Positions 181 to 12,447 of a stretch of DNA of 12,607 nucleotides are shown here, in pieces (position 1 is the stretch's first letter; every line of letters begins with the position of its first letter). A program made the position numbers and the translations under genes. Source of the DNA: a virus. Taxonomy: Duplodnaviria > Heunggongvirae > Uroviricota > Caudoviricetes. Below the pieces are notes generated by a model that searched no databases, was not told where the DNA came from, and saw only the letters and a list, made by a program, of their open reading frames with translations. The stretch lies in IMG/VR virus record IMGVR_UViG_2695420412_000012. The stretch is one strand, 5' to 3'.

Positions 181-276
181 AAGAAATGAAAAAAGGCCAC
201 GCAGTTGCGCAGCCTGATAAACCCTGGTTAAAATCCACACGATAACAACACAACAATATCAGTATCTCATGCTATT

Positions 277-301
277 GCCCGAACCCATTCGGGCATTTTT
301 T
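277..301 (+). terminator. Rho-independent terminator (gcccgaa-ccca-ttcgggc followed by attttttacc)
   Basis: 7-bp GC-rich stem, 4-nt loop, then a T-run on the + strand. Confidence 0.55.
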
Positions 302-307
302 ACCCAT

Positions 308-338
308 AAAAAATGCCCCTCCGGAGAGGGGCATTTTT
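308..338. terminator. Bidirectional rho-independent terminator (A-run, atgcccctc-cgga-gaggggcat, T-run)
   Basis: Perfect 9-bp stem flanked by an A-run upstream and a T-run downstream, so it can terminate either strand. It would end the leftward (minus) late/accessory transcript. Confidence 0.65.
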
Positions 339-535
339 GCATGCACATTCTTTTTCTTGCATGGTGCCGGGTGCCTCCCGGTGAATTCAGTATCAGCACC
401 TGAATCCGCGATTATCACATATACCTACTTGCTGATTGCCCCTCCGCACAGGGGGATTCACCATGCAGTAGTATTTTTAATAAACAGCAAATAAAAAAAT
501 CAAGCATTATGCAGGCTGTTTCTTTTTATCACCGG

Positions 536-1263: not shown

Positions 1264-2085
1264 CTATCTGGTCACCTTTTTCAGTTGTTGTTCTGCCCAT
1301 GCTTCTTCAATATCAAACTGCACCACCAGCGTATCGTAAAAACGTTTAACTGTTTTTTTCCATGTATCAAGAGATATGGCATCGGTTACATTACATATGG
1401 CATTAAATGCCTCCGTTGAAGGTAATCTTTCATAGCCACGACCACCACAACGCTGGCAGTCTCTGATAACAGGCATACCACGTTTTACCGACTCTTCACG
1501 ATGAATGGCAACACCGCGCCCACGACAATCTTTACAGGCGGTGGAAACCTCCCCCTTCCCTCCACACTCCGGACAGGCAACTTTTACCACCTCCCTGACT
1601 TTTTTCCATTCCTCCCAGTAAGACGGATACACGCCTTTTGTGCACTTTGCCCACACTGGCGGCTTACCATCCGGATACTGGATCTTGTTTGTAAAAACCT
1701 CGCTTTCAATAAATTTTTTTCCGTGACAACAGGGGCACTGTTTTTTGCTCGCCGCGCTACGGGCATAATCTTCAAACGCATACGAAGCCATAATACGCAT
1801 CACTGCCGGTTTTATTTCTGCCGGGAGTTTTCTTAACGCCGCCACGCGATCACACCGACTGAGTGCATATTCTGTCAGCAATTCTGTTGCCCGCTCTCTG
1901 TCATTCATACTAATGCCCATTTTCCCAAGGAACGCAGAAAACCCCATCTCAGCCCAATTCTGTGTCATGCCCTGCGCGGCCATCACATCAGTGATACTCA
2001 GCGTATCTTTCGACGTTGAGGCCGATGCATCAGTCAGGCCGAGGGATTTTGGGGAGTAGTATTTCGGTAAATCTTCCAGTTTCAT
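1264..2085 (-). CDS. Q: Late-gene antiterminator Q (lambda Q family, 273 aa, with multiple CxxC zinc-binding pairs)
   Basis: ATG at 2083-2085. N-terminus ...YSPKS...TDVMAAQGM... and C-terminus ...LPSTEAFNAI...VKRFYDTLVVQ parallel lambda Q. Cys pairs CPCCHG, CPECGG, CKDCRG, CQRCGG. Followed by the pR'-like promoter. Confidence 0.9.
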   Translation of the reverse strand: MKLEDLPKYYSPKSLGLTDASASTSKDTLSITDVMAAQGMTQNWAEMGFSAFLGKMGISMNDRERATELLTEYALSRCDRVAALRKLPAEIKPAVMRIMASYAFEDYARSAASKKQCPCCHGKKFIESEVFTNKIQYPDGKPPVWAKCTKGVYPSYWEEWKKVREVVKVACPECGGKGEVSTACKDCRGRGVAIHREESVKRGMPVIRDCQRCGGRGYERLPSTEAFNAICNVTDAISLDTWKKTVKRFYDTLVVQFDIEEAWAEQQLKKVTR

Positions 2086-2456
2086 TTTTTGACCTGCCCT
2101 TCAAGCATTATGGGGTAAATCTTCCCCCCCAGACGTCCACCAGATACTGGCTGACCACGAACGATATTGATTTCATCAAACTGCTCATCGTCCATTAACA
2201 CTCCCGCATGCGTCAGCGCATCCAGCGGTGCTTTCAGGATATTGTCCAGGTCGCGACGACGCTTATCCGGTGGCTCCACAATAATCCTGATCGCCAGCCT
2301 TCCGGACAGATTTAATTTCAGTCGCTGCTGGCGAACAATAAGCGCCACATCACGGCGATAACGCTCACCGGCTTTTGATACAAAATATGTGCTGCCACGA
2401 CGTCGCCAGTAGGTGTTCACCGTCGGCGGGTAAGGCAAAACAAACTCTATACGCAT
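2082..2456 (-). CDS. rusA: RusA Holliday-junction resolvase (124 aa)
   Basis: ATG at 2454-2456. Motif [15 protein letters not shown] ... [30 protein letters not shown] is typical of the RusA family. Its stop overlaps the Q start (ATGA). Confidence 0.9.
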   Translation of the reverse strand: MRIEFVLPYPPTVNTYWRRRGSTYFVSKAGERYRRDVALIVRQQRLKLNLSGRLAIRIIVEPPDKRRRDLDNILKAPLDALTHAGVLMDDEQFDEINIVRGQPVSGGRLGGKIYPIMLEGQVKK

Positions 2457-2468
2457 CAGTAACCCCTT

Positions 2469-3500
2469 TTACCCAAGCACGCCGGTTGCAAAGGCGTGAT
2501 CAAGAAAACGAAAAATTAAATCAACCTGAGAACCATGCTTTTCTTCGAACGCCAGCGGATCCGCATGAAGCTCGTTGTGATGCTCCCGACACAGCGGTAG
2601 CGTGAAAATATCGTGGGATTTTGTTCCCATTCCGCCCTGACCATGACCAATCAGGTGATGGGGATCGTCGGCTGGCTTACTACAACACGCACACGGCTGT
2701 GTCTTCACCCAGCGTGTGTATTTCTCGTTAACCCAGCGGCGACGTTTAGGTCGTTTCATGAAAGATTCCGGAGACTCAGGATCAACGGCAATGCTGACCA
2801 CCGTCTTTTCCTGTGGTGGGTTCTGTTGCTGGTGGGCGTGAGGCAGCGGCGCAAGATTTTTTGTGCGCTGTTTCAGTATGCTGGTGGCGGTCTGCTCTCC
2901 CGGTACGATGTCGCTTTCACGGTACATTGAGCGGATTTTTTCTGCACGCAACCCCAGCGAACGACGTAATACCGCTTCCGGTAGCGCGTCCGCCACCTGA
3001 TTGCGGACCGCCCACCAGGATAATTCAGCCAAAGATAATTCACGCTCCTGCGTACCGCTTATTGCGTGACCAGGCGGCTTACCATCCGGATACTGGATCT
3101 TGTTTGTAAAAACCTCGCTTTCAATAAATTTTTTTCCGTGACAACAGGGGCACTGTTTTTTGCTCGCCGCGCTACGGGCATAATCTTCAAACGCATACGA
3201 AGCCATAATACGCATCACTGCCGGTTTTATTTCTGCCGGGAGTTTTCTTAACGCCGCCACGCGATCACACCGACTGAGTGCATATTCTGTCAGCAATTCT
3301 GTTGCCCGCTCTCTGTCATTCATACTAATGCCCATTTTCCCAAGGAACGCAGAAAACCCCATCTCAGCCCAATTCTGTGTCATGCCCTGCGCGGCCATCA
3401 CATCAGTGATACTCAGCGTATCTTTCGACGTTGAGGCCGATGCATCAGTCAGGCCGAGGGATTTTGGGGAGTAGTATTTCGGTAAATCTTCCAGTTTCAT
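2469..3500 (-). CDS. Chimeric in-frame ORF: Q N-terminal 143 codons fused to the C-terminal ~200 codons of the YdfU-like protein
   Basis: 3072-3500 matches the 5' part of Q at 1657-2085; 2469-3071 matches the 3' part of the 349-aa gene at 6204-6806. The breakpoint is at 3071/3072 (gtgacc|aggcggcttacc). The 343-aa ORF reads through it. Confidence 0.7.
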   Translation of the reverse strand: MKLEDLPKYYSPKSLGLTDASASTSKDTLSITDVMAAQGMTQNWAEMGFSAFLGKMGISMNDRERATELLTEYALSRCDRVAALRKLPAEIKPAVMRIMASYAFEDYARSAASKKQCPCCHGKKFIESEVFTNKIQYPDGKPPGHAISGTQERELSLAELSWWAVRNQVADALPEAVLRRSLGLRAEKIRSMYRESDIVPGEQTATSILKQRTKNLAPLPHAHQQQNPPQEKTVVSIAVDPESPESFMKRPKRRRWVNEKYTRWVKTQPCACCSKPADDPHHLIGHGQGGMGTKSHDIFTLPLCREHHNELHADPLAFEEKHGSQVDLIFRFLDHAFATGVLG

Positions 3501-3871
3501 TTTTTGACCTGCCCTTCAAGCATTATGGGGTAAATCTTCCCCCCCAGACGTCCACCAGATACTGGCTGACCACGAACGATATTGATTTCATCAAACTGCT
3601 CATCGTCCATTAACACTCCCGCATGCGTCAGCGCATCCAGCGGTGCTTTCAGGATATTGTCCAGGTCGCGACGACGCTTATCCGGTGGCTCTGCAATCAC
3701 CTTTATCGCCAGCCTTCCGGACAGGATTAATTTCAGCCGCTGCTGGCGAACAATAAGCGCCACAGCCCGGCGATAACGCTTTCCCTCCTCCGAGATAAAA
3801 TATGTGCTGCCACGACGTCGCCAGTAGGTGTTCACCGTTGGCGGGTAAGGTAAAACCAAATCTATGAGCAT
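3497..3871 (-). CDS. rusA: RusA resolvase, divergent copy (124 aa, MLIDLVLPYPP...)
   Basis: ATG at 3869-3871. Same family motifs as the other two copies but with several substitutions (N-terminus, IKVIAEPP, KRYRRAVALIV). Confidence 0.9.
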   Translation of the reverse strand: MLIDLVLPYPPTVNTYWRRRGSTYFISEEGKRYRRAVALIVRQQRLKLILSGRLAIKVIAEPPDKRRRDLDNILKAPLDALTHAGVLMDDEQFDEINIVRGQPVSGGRLGGKIYPIMLEGQVKK

Positions 3872-3883
3872 CAGTCACCTCTT

Positions 3884-4933
3884 TTACCCAAGCACGCCAG
3901 TTGCAAAGGCGTGATCAAGAAAACGAAAAATTAAATCAACCTGAGAGCCATGCTTTTCTTCGAACGCCAGCGGATCCGCATGAAGCTCGTTGTGATGCTC
4001 CCGACACAGCGGTAGCGTGAAAATATCGTGAGATTTTGTCCCCATTCCGCCCTGACCATGACCAATCAGGTGATGGGGATCGTCGGCTGGCTTACCACAA
4101 CACGCACACGGCTGAGTCTTCACCCAGCGTGTGTATTTCTCGTTAACCCAGCGGCGACGTTTAGGTCGTTTCATGAAAGATTCCGGAGACTCAGGATCAA
4201 CGGCAATGCTGACCACCGTCTTTTCCTGTGGTGGGTTCTGTTGCTGGTGGGCGTGAGGCAACGGTGCAAGATTTTTTGTGCGCTGTTTCAATATGCTGGT
4301 GGCGGTCTGCTCTCCCGGTACGATGTCGCTTTCGCGGTACACCGAGCAGATTTTTTCCGCTGGTAATCCCAGCGAGCGACGTAATACCGCTTCCGGTAGC
4401 GCGTCCGCCAGCTGATTGCGGACCGCCCACCAGGATAATTCAGCCAGAGATAATTCACGCTCCTGCGTACCGCTTATTGCGTGACCGATGACGTCAATCA
4501 TCCATGCTGACAGGTTTTGATGAGCAAGTTGCTCGAGTGATTCGGATGTCTGGTCACGCAGCTGGTTGTCGCAGTGCCAGCACAACACCATTGCGCCGGT
4601 ACCATATCGGTGAATAACGGTTTCGCTGTGATGATAATCGCCGTGTGGCCACTGGCAGGATTTAATATGGCGCAACAGCCAGTCAGACAATGCACCAGCA
4701 CCACCAGCAGCACGAATTACCCGTGCGTTACTGAAAAACGGCAGCAATGTTTTGTCTTCCACCAGCGGCTGGCGAACGGCAGGAACGACCCCGGACGGCA
4801 GATTACGCATGCTTTTCGGTTCCGGCTCCACCAGTAACCGGGTATTGTGGAATACCGGCATGGATTCACGGCCCGGCTTAACGATCACCAGCCCGAGTTC
4901 CGGTACCAGAACAGGTCGAAGTAATACCCGCAC
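3884..4933 (-). CDS. YdfU-like 349-aa protein with two Cys/His clusters (DUF968-type, putative HNH-like nuclease), divergent copy
   Basis: GTG at 4931-4933 with GGAGG 4 nt upstream. Cys/His clusters CQWPHGDYHH...CWHCDN and CACC...HHLIGHGQGG...CREHHNELH. Length and position (between a small gene and rusA/Q) match Qin prophage YdfU as I recall it. Confidence 0.8.
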   Translation of the reverse strand: MRVLLRPVLVPELGLVIVKPGRESMPVFHNTRLLVEPEPKSMRNLPSGVVPAVRQPLVEDKTLLPFFSNARVIRAAGGAGALSDWLLRHIKSCQWPHGDYHHSETVIHRYGTGAMVLCWHCDNQLRDQTSESLEQLAHQNLSAWMIDVIGHAISGTQERELSLAELSWWAVRNQLADALPEAVLRRSLGLPAEKICSVYRESDIVPGEQTATSILKQRTKNLAPLPHAHQQQNPPQEKTVVSIAVDPESPESFMKRPKRRRWVNEKYTRWVKTQPCACCGKPADDPHHLIGHGQGGMGTKSHDIFTLPLCREHHNELHADPLAFEEKHGSQVDLIFRFLDHAFATGVLG

Positions 4934-4934
4934 G

Positions 4935-5213
4935 TTACCTCCAGATGCGTTGCTGGAATGTGCGGGACGGACGCGGTGGGCGTTCGGAGTAAGGAAGCCT
5001 GACGGAGATTATCCAGTGACGGTAGTCGAGGCTAAGGGCTTTTTTAACCTCGTATCCGCGCCTGCGGTAACACTGAATTATCCATTCAGCCTGCTCTTCA
5101 GTGCATGGTGGATGCTGGAACCAGTCCGATTTGAATGCATGAAAACGCCGTCCGCACCTGCTGGCAAAGACGGCAGAATCATCAGAATTGTGTAATTTGG
5201 TATCGTGCGCCAT
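4935..5213 (-). CDS. Small protein (92 aa, MAHDTKLHNSDD...) in the position of Qin rem
   Basis: ATG at 5211-5213. Its stop abuts the GTG of the 349-aa gene. Second copy at 7255-7527. The longer 129-aa track ORF is an upstream extension without support. Confidence 0.55.
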   Translation of the reverse strand: MAHDTKLHNSDDSAVFASRCGRRFHAFKSDWFQHPPCTEEQAEWIIQCYRRRGYEVKKALSLDYRHWIISVRLPYSERPPRPSRTFQQRIWR

Positions 5214-5399
5214 CGGTTGTCTCTTCTGGCGCAGCAGGTGCCAGTTGTTCAGGCTGGCGTATAAAGTATAAATAAACTGGTTCCAGTGTAAAGCCCCTAC
5301 ATTAATGGAATAAAAGTCAAACAACAGATTGCTGGGATAAACACAACGCTTATTATTAAAAGCGATTAGATAAATTAAATTTTAATGTTATGCAATTTT

Positions 5400-5570
5400 A
5401 GGTAATGACTCCAACTTATTGATAGTGTTTTATGTTCAGATAATGCCCGATGACTTTGTCATGCAGCTCCACCGATTTTGAGAACGACAGCGACTTCCGT
5501 CCCAGCCGTGCCAGGTGCTGCCTCAGATTCAGGTTATGCCGCTCAATTCGCTGCGTATATCGCTTGCTGA
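5400..5570 (-). mobile_element. insB: IS1 remnant: right terminal inverted repeat plus the 3' end of insB, 171 bp
   Basis: ggtaatgactccaacttattgatagtg... is the IS1 terminal IR. The encoded tail ...[47 protein letters not shown] is the InsB C-terminus. IS1 identity stops at 5570, where Q sequence begins. Confidence 0.9.
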
Positions 5571-5820
5571 ACGCCGCCACACGATCGCACCGACTGAGTG
5601 CATAATCTGCCAGTAATTCTGTTGCCCGCGCCCTGTCATTCATACTGATGCCCATTTTCCCCAGGAACGCAGAAAACCCCATCTCAGCCCGATTCTGTGT
5701 CATGCCCTGCGCGGCCATCACATCAGTGATACTCAGCGCATCTTTTGACGTTGAGGCCGATGCATCGGTCAGGCAAGGGGATTTTGGGGAGTAGTATTTC
5801 GGTAAATCTTCCAGTTTCAT
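5416..5820 (-). pseudogene. Truncated Q (first ~83 codons, divergent allele) fused in frame to the insB 3' end
   Basis: 134-aa ORF: [30 protein letters not shown]...SRCDRVAA then IS1-derived [14 protein letters not shown].... Junction at 5570/5571. Confidence 0.85.
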
Positions 5821-6191
5821 TTTTTGACCTGCTCTTCATGCATTATGGGGTAAATCTTCACCCCCAGACGTCCACCAGATACTGGCTGACCACGAACGAT
5901 ATTGATTTCATCAAACTGCTCATCGTCCATTAACACTCCCGCATGCGTCAGCGCATCCAGCGGTGCTTTCAGGATATTGTCCAGGTCGCGACGACGCTTA
6001 TCCGGTGGCTCCACAATAATCCTGATCGCCAGCCTTCCGGACAGATTTAATTTCAGTCGCTGCTGGCGAACAATAAGCGCCACATCACGGCGATAACGCT
6101 CACCGGCTTTTGATACAAAATATGTGCTGCCACGACGTCGCCAGTAGGTGTTCACCGTCGGCGGGTAAGGCAAAACAAACTCTATACGCAT
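5817..6191 (-). CDS. rusA: RusA resolvase (124 aa)
   Basis: Almost identical to 2082-2456 except at the 3' end ([15 protein letters not shown]), where the overlapping Q allele differs. Confidence 0.9.
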
Positions 6192-6203
6192 CAGTAACCC
6201 CTT

Positions 6204-7253
6204 TTACCCAAGCACGCCGGTTGCAAAGGCGTGATCAAGAAAACGAAAAATTAAATCAACCTGAGAACCATGCTTTTCTTCGAACGCCAGCGGATCCGCA
6301 TGAAGCTCGTTGTGATGCTCCCGACACAGCGGTAGCGTGAAAATATCGTGGGATTTTGTTCCCATTCCGCCCTGACCATGACCAATCAGGTGATGGGGAT
6401 CGTCGGCTGGCTTACTACAACACGCACACGGCTGTGTCTTCACCCAGCGTGTGTATTTCTCGTTAACCCAGCGGCGACGTTTAGGTCGTTTCATGAAAGA
6501 TTCCGGAGACTCAGGATCAACGGCAATGCTGACCACCGTCTTTTCCTGTGGTGGGTTCTGTTGCTGGTGGGCGTGAGGCAGCGGCGCAAGATTTTTTGTG
6601 CGCTGTTTCAGTATGCTGGTGGCGGTCTGCTCTCCCGGTACGATGTCGCTTTCACGGTACATTGAGCGGATTTTTTCTGCACGCAACCCCAGCGAACGAC
6701 GTAATACCGCTTCCGGTAGCGCGTCCGCCACCTGATTGCGGACCGCCCACCAGGATAATTCAGCCAAAGATAATTCACGCTCCTGCGTACCGCTTATTGC
6801 GTGACCGATGACGTCAATCATCCATGCTGACAAGTTTTGGTGAGCAAGTTGCTCAAGTGATTCTGAGGTCTGGTCACGCAACTGGTTGTCGCAGTGCCAG
6901 CACAACACCATTGCGCCGGTACCATAACGGTGAATGACGGTTTCACTGTGGTGATAATCACCGTGTGGCCACTGGCAGGATTTAATATGGCGCAACAGCC
7001 AGTCAGACAGTGCACCAGCGCCGCCAGCAGCACGAATCACACGCTCATTGCTGAAAAATGGCAGTAATGATTTATCCTCCGCCAGCGGCTGGCGAACGGC
7101 AGGGACGACTCCGGATGGCAGGCCGCACATGCTTTTCGGTTCCGGCTCCACCAGCACTCGAGGATTATGAAATATCTGTATGGATTCACGGCCCGGCTTA
7201 AGGACCACCAGCCCAAGCTCAGGCACCAGAACAGGTCTAAGTAATACCCGCAC
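6204..7253 (-). CDS. YdfU-like 349-aa Cys/His-rich protein (DUF968-type, putative HNH-like nuclease)
   Basis: Full-length copy. Its 3' 600 bp is identical to 2469-3071. Confidence 0.8.
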   Translation of the reverse strand: MRVLLRPVLVPELGLVVLKPGRESIQIFHNPRVLVEPEPKSMCGLPSGVVPAVRQPLAEDKSLLPFFSNERVIRAAGGAGALSDWLLRHIKSCQWPHGDYHHSETVIHRYGTGAMVLCWHCDNQLRDQTSESLEQLAHQNLSAWMIDVIGHAISGTQERELSLAELSWWAVRNQVADALPEAVLRRSLGLRAEKIRSMYRESDIVPGEQTATSILKQRTKNLAPLPHAHQQQNPPQEKTVVSIAVDPESPESFMKRPKRRRWVNEKYTRWVKTQPCACCSKPADDPHHLIGHGQGGMGTKSHDIFTLPLCREHHNELHADPLAFEEKHGSQVDLIFRFLDHAFATGVLG

Positions 7254-7254
7254 G

Positions 7255-7527
7255 TTACCTCCAGATCCGTTGCTGGAAAGTGCGGGACGGACGTGGTGGG
7301 CGTTCGGAATAAGGCAGCCTGACAGAGATTATCCAGTGCCGATAGTCGAGACTGAGAGCTTTCTTAACCTCGAACCCGCGCCTGCGGTAAGAATGAATCA
7401 GCCATTCGGCCTGTTCTTCAGTACATGGTGGGTGTTGGTACCAGTCGGTTTTAAATGCGTGTGAACGCCGCTCATGCCGGATGGCAAGGTCGGTATCAGA
7501 ATTGTGAAATTTGGTTTTGTGCGCCAT
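7255..7527 (-). CDS. Small protein (90 aa, MAHKTKFHNSDTD...), rem-position gene
   Basis: ATG at 7525-7527. Paralog of 4935-5213. Confidence 0.55.
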   Translation of the reverse strand: MAHKTKFHNSDTDLAIRHERRSHAFKTDWYQHPPCTEEQAEWLIHSYRRRGFEVKKALSLDYRHWIISVRLPYSERPPRPSRTFQQRIWR

Positions 7528-7597
7528 CTGTTTTCTCTGCTGGCGCAGCAGGTGTCAGGTGTTCAGGCTGACGTGCGAATTGTAAACCAGAATGCCA

Positions 7598-7626
7598 GGA
7601 AAAAACAAAACCCGCCGAAGCGGGTT
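7598..7626 (-). terminator. Rho-independent terminator downstream of hok (aacccgc-cgaa-gcgggtt then T-rich tract on the minus strand)
   Basis: Perfect 7-bp stem at 7609-7626. The + strand A-rich run at 7598-7610 becomes the T-run for minus transcripts. Confidence 0.65.
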
Positions 7627-7694
7627 AAGTGCGGGTGCGTTGAGGATGCCTGACACATCAGAGGTGGCGAGGGATTTCTCCCCCGCCAGGTCTC

Positions 7695-7850
7695 TTACTC
7701 CTCAGGTTCGTAAGCTGTGAAGACAGCGACCTCCGTCTGGCCGGTTCGGATTCGTACCTCGCAGAGGTCTTTCCTCGTTACCAGTGCCGTCACTATGACG
7801 GTTAAACAGATGACGATCAGGGCGATTAACATCGCCTTTTGCTGCTTCAT
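7695..7850 (-). CDS. hok: Hok-family membrane toxin (51 aa, HokD/RelF-like)
   Basis: MKQQKAMLIALIVICLTVIVTALVTRKDLCEVRIRTGQTEVAVFTAYEPEE shows the Hok signature (TM helix, TRKxLCE, EVAxFxAYE). AAGGAG lies 9 nt upstream. An in-frame upstream ATG at 7905-7907 would give a 70-codon mok-like extension. Confidence 0.9.
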   Translation of the reverse strand: MKQQKAMLIALIVICLTVIVTALVTRKDLCEVRIRTGQTEVAVFTAYEPEE

Positions 7851-8109
7851 AGCCTGCTTCTCCTTGCCTTTCGGCACGTAAGAGGCTAACCTAGATTTGC
7901 CGTTCATAGATTGAGCCTCAGATTAATGTTAAGCGTCTTGCAGGACGCGTAATGTTAACTGGGGCTTTTCTCTATCTGCCTTTTGGTGTTCATGCCTGAG
8001 ACAGATAGCCTCAAGCACCCGCAGTCATTCTACTTAACTAAGATTTCCCCGCAAACCGTTTTTGTCCGGCACAGTAAATATCCAACTAAACCAATGGCGT
8101 TCGCTGTAT

Positions 8110-8289
8110 TTACCGCCAGTATTCAATGCACATGACCGCCATGAACACCCCTAAAAAAAGGGCATTTATATATCCAAATATTAATATCAAAACATCAACT
8201 TTTTCCATATACCTTGCTGTGAAGATGATGGGCATACATGATACGAACAACCAGAACGCAACAAACAAAAACTGCAATGCGTTTTTCAT
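8110..8289 (-). CDS. Small membrane protein (59 aa, two predicted TM segments) in an AT-rich island
   Basis: ATG at 8287-8289 preceded by AGGAGG 4 nt upstream. Sequence MKNALQFLFVAFWLFVSCMPIIFTARYMEKVDVLILIFGYINALFLGVFMAVMCIEYWR. The surrounding 8100-8420 is markedly AT-rich. Confidence 0.5.
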   Translation of the reverse strand: MKNALQFLFVAFWLFVSCMPIIFTARYMEKVDVLILIFGYINALFLGVFMAVMCIEYWR

Positions 8290-8459
8290 TATTCCTCCTA
8301 CAATCAATGTGCAATTACATTTAAACACACCTCAATTTGGCCGGACATATAAATATCTAAACCAGAAAAAATCACTTACATAGCGTTACAAACTCTTTAG
8401 TCTAAATATTCATCGTAAAACATTCCCCATACTTATCAGCCCGTTCTGCGCCAGGTAGC

Positions 8460-8776
8460 TCATTGCCTTATCTGGGAATCTGTAATCAGGTTTCCGGATG
8501 CTGGTGGATTTTCGCGTTTTAGTTGTTCATAAAAGTGCACAGCTTTAACCAGTTCTTCTGATGTAACCGGGACTGGCGGGGCAGTGAATAAGGCCTGAAT
8601 TTCATAGTTCGGCCTGTCGTTACAATCCTCTTTTTTCGGTACATATTTCCAGTCACCAGACCACTACTTCCCCTGAAAGTCCGTAACGCCTTTTTTTTCA
8701 CGTAGCGATATCGCCATGCCACTGTTTTTGCTTGCCCCGCCGTTTCATGCCCTTCCTGATAATTAACCTCGCTCAT
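8460..8776 (-). pseudogene. Apparently frameshifted gene (about 110 aa if repaired) with the shift at a T6 homopolymer (8631-8636)
   Basis: Frame 1 gives MSEVNYQEGHETAGQAKTVAWRYRYVKKKALRTFRGSSGLVTGN then low-complexity sequence. The alternative frame after the A6/T6 run gives a protein-like tail ...EDCNDRPNYEIQALFTAPPVPVTSEELVKAVHFYEQLKRENPPASGNLITDSQIRQ* ending at 8460. Confidence 0.3.
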
Positions 8777-12027: not shown

Positions 12028-12447
12028 ATGGACAAATATGAATTTAGACGACAGCAACTCATCAAAATTCGTGATGAGAAATGCGATGGTAAAGCGGTTA
12101 ACGTGGCCAGAAAGATCGGGCGCGAGCCTTCTTATGTATCAAGAATGTTGTACCCAGAGGGGAAAAAGGGAAAAAAACGGATCGCTGATGATATGGTGGA
12201 GATTATCGAAGAGTCCTTTGGGTTACCCCGGGGATGGATGGATGGTATCGTTTCATCATCAACGAACACAGCCTCCAGTTATGAAACAAGGGTTCTAACG
12301 CCACGACAACGTATTTTTTTAGATCTCTTAGACGAACTGCCAGAAAGTGAAGCGGATAACTTATTAAAAACTCTTGAAGAGAAAAAACAGTATTACAATA
12401 TGATCTACGAAGAAATCCGTAAAAAGAAAGCACAAAACGCATCATAG
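12028..12447 (+). CDS. Prophage repressor-like HTH protein (139 aa, RacR/CI-position)
   Basis: ATG at 12028. HTH-like segment KAVNVARKIGREPSYVSRML. It is the only clear + strand gene and is divergent from the cro-like gene. No obvious S24 peptidase motifs. Confidence 0.7.
   Translation: MDKYEFRRQQLIKIRDEKCDGKAVNVARKIGREPSYVSRMLYPEGKKGKKRIADDMVEIIEESFGLPRGWMDGIVSSSTNTASSYETRVLTPRQRIFLDLLDELPESEADNLLKTLEEKKQYYNMIYEEIRKKKAQNAS

Follow-up and report, generated by a model that had tools for sequence, protein, structure and literature searches.

The window, a 12,607-nt stretch of Caudoviricetes DNA (IMG/VR record IMGVR_UViG_2695420412_000012), almost certainly carries a type I toxin-antitoxin cassette of the hok/mok/sok kind, complete in its parts and belonging to a lambdoid (Rac/Qin-like) prophage, on the minus strand at 8055-7599. 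Judged by its sequence, the cassette is of the same type as mokW/hokW/sokW of phage 933W/Sp5, and the encoded toxin is identical to HokD. It is already known as a kind: an ordinary, intact hok/sok copy of the sort common in lambdoid E. coli prophages, annotated since the 933W genome, widespread in E. coli, and with a close homologue, hokW-sokW, that has been experimentally characterised. As a discovery the cassette is of little weight, and its use lies in annotation. The PGAP annotation of an identical locus consists of 'hokD' alone, with mok, sok, and the RNA elements missing, so the locus can pass for an orphan toxin. The preliminary description had recognised a hok-type locus with a mok-like extension, and this stands; the absence of relBE and the in-frame mok, to which it drew attention, are the standard layout of the prophage cassette. 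Folding and comparison with hok/sok loci located tac, fbi, and ucb as well as a putative sok promoter, and the elements of the cassette are as follows.

8027-8055, minus strand: putative hok promoter, with -35 TTTGCG (8055-8050), a 17-nt spacer, and -10 TAGAAT (8032-8027)
7599-8020, minus strand: full-length hok mRNA, predicted at about 422 nt, with G8020 as 5' end and the terminator as 3' end
7845-8020, minus strand: hok leader, Rfam RF01794 (named 'sok'; the model is in hok-sense orientation)
8009-8020, minus strand: tac (translational activator) element GGGUGCUUGAGG at the mRNA 5' end, pairing with fbi in the full-length fold
7961-7966, minus strand: ucb (anti-Shine-Dalgarno) box AGCCCC, pairing with the mok Shine-Dalgarno sequence in the full-length fold and with tac in the truncated fold
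7916-7919, minus strand: mok Shine-Dalgarno sequence GAGG, 8 nt 5' of the mok ATG and invariant in alignment A2
7695-7907, minus strand: mok ORF, 70 codons in frame with hok; the product is MNGKSRLASYVPKGKEKQA followed by Hok
7882-7887, minus strand: dcb box AGCCUC, pairing with the mok Shine-Dalgarno region in truncated folds ending at 7655/7660
7857-7863, minus strand: hok Shine-Dalgarno sequence GGAGAAG (from sequence reading), where homology to K-12 hokD begins
7850-7695, minus strand: hok toxin ORF, 51 aa, identical to HokD (WP_000813254.1)
7666-7687, minus strand: 3' UTR hairpin GGCGGGGGAGAAAUCCCUCGCC, helix 15, 91% paired, with G-U/A-U/G-C variation
7633-7645, minus strand: fbi (fold-back inhibition) element CCUCAACGCACCC, pairing with 8020-8009 in the MFE and centroid folds
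7599-7626, minus strand: intrinsic terminator of the hok mRNA, a stem at 7626-7609 (7 pairs, 5 of them G-C) and then a T run
7864-7892, plus strand: putative sok promoter, with -35 TTGCCT (7864-7869), a 17-nt spacer, and -10 TAACCT (7887-7892)
7899-7969, plus strand: Sok antisense RNA, predicted at about 71 nt, with coordinates from the sokW misc_RNA of AF125520

Toxin gene and 3' end of the hok mRNA

The Hok ORF is intact, as had been described. It encodes the 51-aa peptide MKQQKAMLIALIVICLTVIVTALVTRKDLCEVRIRTGQTEVAVFTAYEPEE and matches the Pfam family HOK_GEF (PF01848; 3e-23, 81.6 bits against a cut-off of 22). It falls below the cut-off of the NCBIfam Hok subfamily model (48.5 versus 73), which appears to be built around other Hok subgroups. 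The protein accession WP_000813254.1 is annotated both at the 100%-identical locus of E. coli JNEC-KY173 and for K-12 hokD. The gene also has its own intrinsic terminator, again as first described: in the terminator scan the stem at 7626-7609 is followed by TTGTTTTTTC, and this minus-strand stem and T run form the sole terminator-like site within 7400-8500. By analogy, the hairpin at 7666-7687 is likely the protective end of the processed (truncated) hok mRNA; in R1, the last stem-loop of the truncated hok mRNA (Tr-hok) shields it against exoRNases (PMC9841398).

Codon 47 of hok (Tyr, UAC) and the G that follows it form a UACG motif (7709-7712, minus strand) that falls in an unpaired linker of the predicted fold. 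The hokD mRNA, like that of hokB, has been reported to undergo A-to-I editing that recodes Tyr to Cys, and the HokD coding sequence is toxic upon expression (preprint, bioRxiv 10.1101/2025.08.07.668861). On the plus strand, a 59-aa ORF (7474-7653), which is a RefSeq hypothetical protein at the identical locus, overlaps the hok terminator and fbi; it is probably spurious.

Promoter, leader, and folding of the hok mRNA

The leader matches RF01794 over the full model (positions 1-157; 112.4 bits against a gathering threshold of 59, E = 1.8e-25), and the 16-nt insertion relative to the model is exactly the tip of the GCGUC...GACGC hairpin. We infer that the hok transcript starts at G8020 because the Rfam model starts there and the homologous GGCGCUUGAGGC stands at the start of the R1-type mRNA. 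The transcribed leader would then span about 113 nt (8020-7908), not the roughly 200 nt first proposed, and 8021-8109 would be promoter and intergenic DNA. The motif GTAGAAT lies 6 nt 5' of the GGGTGCTTGAGG start in nearly all of 52 upstream variants. Judged from sequence, the hok promoter is weak. A consensus promoter scan of 7400-8500 returned nothing at threshold, both the hok and the sok promoter falling below it, so both were placed via homology and spacing and are given as putative.

Two inverted repeats had been noted in the leader, and both are present. GCGTC/GACGC lies at 7933-7937/7944-7948, one base from the position given earlier, and CTATCTG/CAGATAG (7972-7978 and 8002-8008) forms a stem in the 5' leader adjoining tac. 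The suggestion that the leader carries the regulatory folds of a hok mRNA was borne out by the Rfam match (8020-7845) and by the tac/fbi, ucb/Shine-Dalgarno, and Shine-Dalgarno/dcb pairings in the predicted folds.

The 422-nt hok mRNA has a predicted MFE of -173.2 kcal/mol, compared with -127.5 +/- 6.3 kcal/mol for dinucleotide shuffles (z = -7.28), and its MFE and centroid structures agree. Both contain a long-range tac/fbi helix of 12 pairs (8020-8009 with 7645-7633). For RNAs shortened to a 3' end of 7655 or 7660, the MFE structure in RNAfold has tac/ucb and Shine-Dalgarno/dcb pairing instead; shortening to 7650 or 7665 does not make the open tac/ucb form the MFE structure, so the predicted switch hinges on the position of the processing site. 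In isolation, the nascent leader folds into a local hairpin, 8018-8008/8002-7992 (RNAfold). The R1 hok mRNA adopts metastable, closed full-length, and open truncated conformations (PMC9841398), and the three conformations predicted for the window RNA are these same ones.

The Sok antisense RNA

A plus-strand, Sok-like antisense RNA between 7850 and 8000 had been suggested, and sokW of 933W indeed maps to 7899-7969, where we predict Sok. In the 933W record sokW is a 71-nt misc_RNA overlapping the first 9 nt of mokW, and its coordinates were transferred via the gap-free part of the 933W alignment. The 5' end of the predicted Sok, from 7899 to about 7912, is a single-stranded tail antisense to the start codon of mok; a long hairpin (7913-7966), tipped by GCGUC/GACGC, comes next, and the 3' end is U-rich. 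The candidate folds with -33 kcal/mol (z = -5.8). With sokW mapped in this way, the GCGTC/GACGC repeat is the tip of the Sok hairpin, mirrored in the hok mRNA. The -10 TAACCT of the putative sok promoter ends 7 nt before 7899, and the promoter has the position and spacing of TTGCGC-17-TATCCT in the R1-type locus L004. In hokW-sokW, mutation of the sokW -10 abolished the antitoxin effect (PMC8621323).

The mok reading frame

The in-frame ATG at 7907-7905 pointed out in the preliminary description does open a 70-codon ORF for an N-terminally extended Hok. PMC9841398 makes no statement on the reading frame of mok, and the frame was read from the sequences themselves. A 70-codon in-frame mok is found in 67 of 78 relatives, and in the remaining 11 mok has 19 codons, is read in another frame, and ends in a TGA over the hok ATG (cTATGA). 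The carriers of the 19-codon form are L007 and 10 other IMG/VR loci, those with the ATGCGACACATAGAG allele. In 933W, mokW and hokW have a common stop codon (AF125520), and mok is in frame in hokC as well. No part of the locus varies more than codons 2-5 of mok. From this variability and the other-frame mok we infer that the amino-acid sequence of Mok probably does not matter and that the function of mok is translational coupling, which accords with PMC8621323 and bioRxiv 10.1101/2025.08.07.668861.

Comparison with known systems

The mokW/hokW/sokW cassette of the Stx2 phage 933W and the Sakai prophage Sp5 (AF125520; Takada et al. 2021, PMC8621323) is 92% identical to that of the window over 440 nt and has the same architecture. 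The tac, ucb, and fbi elements, the hok Shine-Dalgarno sequence, and both sok promoter hexamers are identical, and 933W likewise has a 70-codon in-frame mok and an extended Sok hairpin with the GCGUC/GACGC tip. The Hok C-terminus, ...FTAYEPEE in the window as in HokD, is substituted in 933W. The two also differ in the Sok 5' tail and mok codons 2-5 (AACGGCAAATCT in the window, CTGAACACATGT in 933W), and the terminator hairpin sequence of the window is missing from 933W. The window cassette lies between the replication/ydaT region and DUF968-rusA-Q, whereas that of 933W lies elsewhere, by a ygiW-like gene. hokW-sokW is a functional type I system in which HokW is toxic and is neutralised by sokW expressed from its own promoter, with partial dependence on RNase III and Hfq; after mitomycin C, sokW is lost and HokW appears, and the system contributes two-fold to Sp5 phage release (PMC8621323).

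The hokD gene (relF) of K-12 Qin, part of the relB-relE-hokD operon, encodes the identical 51-aa toxin and is near-identical to the window from the hok Shine-Dalgarno sequence through fbi and the terminator. Its homology to the window starts about 15 nt 5' of the hok ATG, and relBE stands in place of the promoter, tac, ucb, mok start, and sok. The relB-relE-hokD arrangement was not found in the window, which has the full leader and no similarity to RelB/RelE: tblastn of the K-12 proteins against the window gave a best match of 7 residues (E = 2.2), in keeping with the earlier observation that relBE is absent. The upstream neighbour of the cassette is instead an unrelated 72-aa ORF. By sequence comparison, K-12 hokD is a derived, truncated, and leaderless fragment that was captured behind relBE and kept its fbi.

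The hok/sok system (parB) of plasmid R1 and of R1-type IncF plasmids has the same element order and belongs to the same Pfam family. The same folding is predicted for the R1-type sequence, including tac/fbi closure, ucb/Shine-Dalgarno pairing, and a Sok hairpin opposite the mok start. As read from the sequence, the mok of the R1-type locus L004 is likewise in frame, and the sok promoter spacing there is 17 nt. HokW, a close relative of the window Hok, has 44% protein identity with R1 Hok (PMC8621323). The R1 tac/fbi differs from that of the window by compensatory changes, the Sok hairpin of the window is 16 nt longer than the Rfam consensus, and the window element belongs to a prophage whereas R1 is a plasmid. 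The chromosomal hokC/mokC/sokC (gef) of E. coli has the same tac and fbi, leader layout, and in-frame mok as the window, with about 82% DNA identity across hok. It differs in its short Sok hairpin, which lacks the 16-nt insertion, in its Hok residues, and in its fixed chromosomal site by dnaJ, the copy in the window being in a prophage.

Distribution and conservation

E. coli JNEC-KY173 has a 100%-identical copy of the 571-nt region that spans the cassette. Of 5426 complete E. coli genomes, 2748 have the region at >= 80% coverage; the median is 2 places per genome and the maximum 10. Among phages, vB_EcoS-640R1 and 813R8 match it at 99.5% identity, and 933W/VT2-Sakai, whose annotation includes mokW, hokW, and sokW, at 92%. 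Identical HokD is encoded by 80 IMG/VR viral contigs, 77 of which have the GGGTGCTTGAGGC leader; of the other three, two show the relE junction of K-12 and the third a different upstream sequence. The absence of relBE is thus the normal state. The 13-mer GGGTGCTTGAGGC, which contains tac, is exact in 77/77 leader-bearing loci.

Conservation of the predicted structure was measured in alignment A2, which holds 68 distinct homologues. The A2 sequences are close relatives of one another and one of them supplied the structure, so the A2 figures lean toward structure: the full-length structure is kept in 94.4% of cells, compared with 34-43% when partners are slid by 1-3 columns, and 14 pairs are changed on both sides, a number reached by 0/500 shuffles. 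The tac/fbi helix (helix 1) is 100% paired in the 68 sequences, its four variant cells all being fbi-side C-to-U changes that give G-U pairs, and ucb is invariant in all 68. A more independent check is provided by the R1-type locus, which folds alike with GGCGCUU/AAGCGCC, two compensatory changes relative to the window.

A 14-nt tac motif was also used to scan genome contigs (596 Gb), and the matches listed were from mostly unrelated taxa; since a 14-mer matches by chance in 596 Gb, the scan gives no taxonomic census. Among the matches listed, hok loci of Citrobacter braakii and Rahnella inusitata have an identical tac at their head and encode quite different Hok proteins. In E. coli 2014C-3075 (L206, NZ_CP027447.1, 780-1140), the leader is present with tac, ucb, mok start, and sok promoter, and the hok CDS is cut exactly at its ATG by an ISNCY-family element. 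This IS-inactivated copy is the reciprocal of K-12 hokD, where the CDS stayed and the leader went.

Prophage surroundings

The window covers the early and nin region of a lambdoid prophage. In addition to the hok cassette and a cI-like gene, it encodes YdaT, DUF977, small ORFs, DUF968, RusA, and antiterminator Q. The 72-aa hydrophobic ORF 5' of the cassette (8110-8328, minus strand) has no Pfam or NCBIfam match. Further features located are listed here.

12028-12447, plus strand: cI-like gene
240-301, plus strand: AgvB (anti-GcvB sRNA), Rfam match of 96.5 bits, well above threshold
302-492, minus strand: STnc100, Rfam match of 146 bits, well above threshold

The adjacent AgvB and STnc100 matches, both known prophage-borne sRNAs, lie just beyond the Q gene.

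Around the cassette the prophage seems to have been rearranged: it contains an IS1 fragment and a triplicated module. The DUF968-RusA-Q module lies in three tandem copies with junction chimeras (1264-7527, minus strand). By Pfam, ORF 2469-3500 fuses the N-terminal half of Q to a C-terminal DUF968 domain, and in ORF 5416-5820 the N-terminus of Q is joined to an IS1 transposase C-terminus. Repeats at 1829-2128 and 3244-3543 are 100% identical, and that at 5564-5863 is 93% identical. The colinear triplicated arrangement was found in no complete E. coli genome, the best match consisting of 5 pieces that span 9.1 kb for 12.25 kb of query; the triplication reflects either recombination between prophages or an assembly artefact.

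Proposed mechanism and alternatives

By analogy, the window cassette most likely works as R1 hok/sok does. The mechanism is drawn from R1 hok/sok, for which the folding pathway of the mRNA has been described (PMC9841398), and from hokW-sokW; what is shown for the window is the sequence and folding features alone. The weak promoter would yield a stable hok mRNA of about 420 nt. A metastable local hairpin would hold tac during synthesis. Once the mRNA is complete, its 5' tac would pair with the 3' fbi and ucb would hide the mok Shine-Dalgarno sequence, and this closed form would allow neither translation nor Sok binding. Slow 3' trimming would strip fbi, upon which tac would move to ucb and the mok start region would be displayed in a hairpin. 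The short-lived, constitutive Sok (plus strand, about 7899-7969) would bind the mok start region via its 5' tail, blocking mok and hence the coupled translation of hok, and the duplex would be marked for RNase III. Should transcription of sok cease, because the element is lost or the prophage is induced, Sok would decay, mok and hok would be translated, and the 51-aa Hok would depolarise the inner membrane.

Other readings of the locus concern its parts or its activity. The leader repeats lie in the region directly 3' of the 72-aa ORF ending at 8110, and could represent protein-binding operators or the terminator of that upstream gene (8110-8328). We give this almost no credence: both repeats belong to the stretch matched by the Rfam hok-leader model and make up helices of it, compensatory changes are seen among homologues in helices 2 and 4, neither repeat is followed by a T run on the minus strand, and the terminator scan has no terminator-like site at them. 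As a terminator for the upstream ORF, the repeats were rejected on the Rfam match and the terminator scan. It is also very unlikely that the 70-aa Mok-Hok fusion is itself the relevant protein, a longer toxin isoform and more than a by-product of coupling. With mok in frame, as in the 67 relatives, 933W, and hokC, each mok translation event must give an N-terminally extended Hok, and residues 6-19 of the extension (RLASYVPKGKEKQA) are fairly conserved. However, this stretch overlaps the sok promoter, dcb, and the hok Shine-Dalgarno sequence, and its conservation can be ascribed to these nucleic-acid constraints. Moreover, codons 2-5 are hypervariable, and the other-frame mok of 11/78 close relatives, with its TGA over the hok ATG, is the classic coupling layout.

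A cassette that is structurally complete yet silent, like the chromosomal hok loci of K-12, is in our judgement unlikely; in this reading it would be a hok locus of the chromosome, domesticated or in decay, that never releases its toxin. Relatives have been visibly inactivated (K-12 hokD is without the whole leader, and 2014C-3075 has ISNCY at the hok ATG), and the host prophage region is rearranged. Some chromosomal hok loci were inactive in post-segregational killing tests (earlier work summarised in bioRxiv 10.1101/2025.08.07.668861), and for this reason we keep an intact but silent locus as a rival. However, all elements of the window cassette are intact and match those of inducible phages (99.5% identity with vB_EcoS-640R1, 92% with 933W/Sp5), and hokW-sokW is active in Sp5 (PMC8621323). 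The substitutions across the 68 homologues preserve structure, which argues for purifying selection on the fold. A working cassette of the R1 kind remains our preferred reading.

Sok recognition tails and significance

The roughly 25 nt from the mok Shine-Dalgarno sequence to mok codon 5, which include the Sok 5' tail and target loop, have at least 10 alleles among 78 loci with identical HokD and near-identical leaders (window 7893-7912 and its equivalents in L006-L085). The window allele, AACGGCAAATCT, is a minority one, found in 7/78 loci including the window itself. Two pairs of prophages from the same genome are available, one with a common Sok tail allele and one with differing alleles. 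This hypervariable Sok recognition tail on an invariant toxin is the one slightly new angle of the locus. Tentatively, and with considerable doubt, we suggest that the tail alleles may reflect diversifying selection for the specificity of each Sok to the hok mRNA of its own prophage.

From an evolutionary perspective, the textbook K-12 hokD is the fragment, and the complete cassette the common phage form. Candidate biological roles for the cassette here are maintenance, phage release, or defence. If the tail alleles are indeed selected for specificity, co-resident prophages would neither cross-protect nor cross-activate, and the Sok tail would constitute an 'immunity-type' system for type I toxin-antitoxins.
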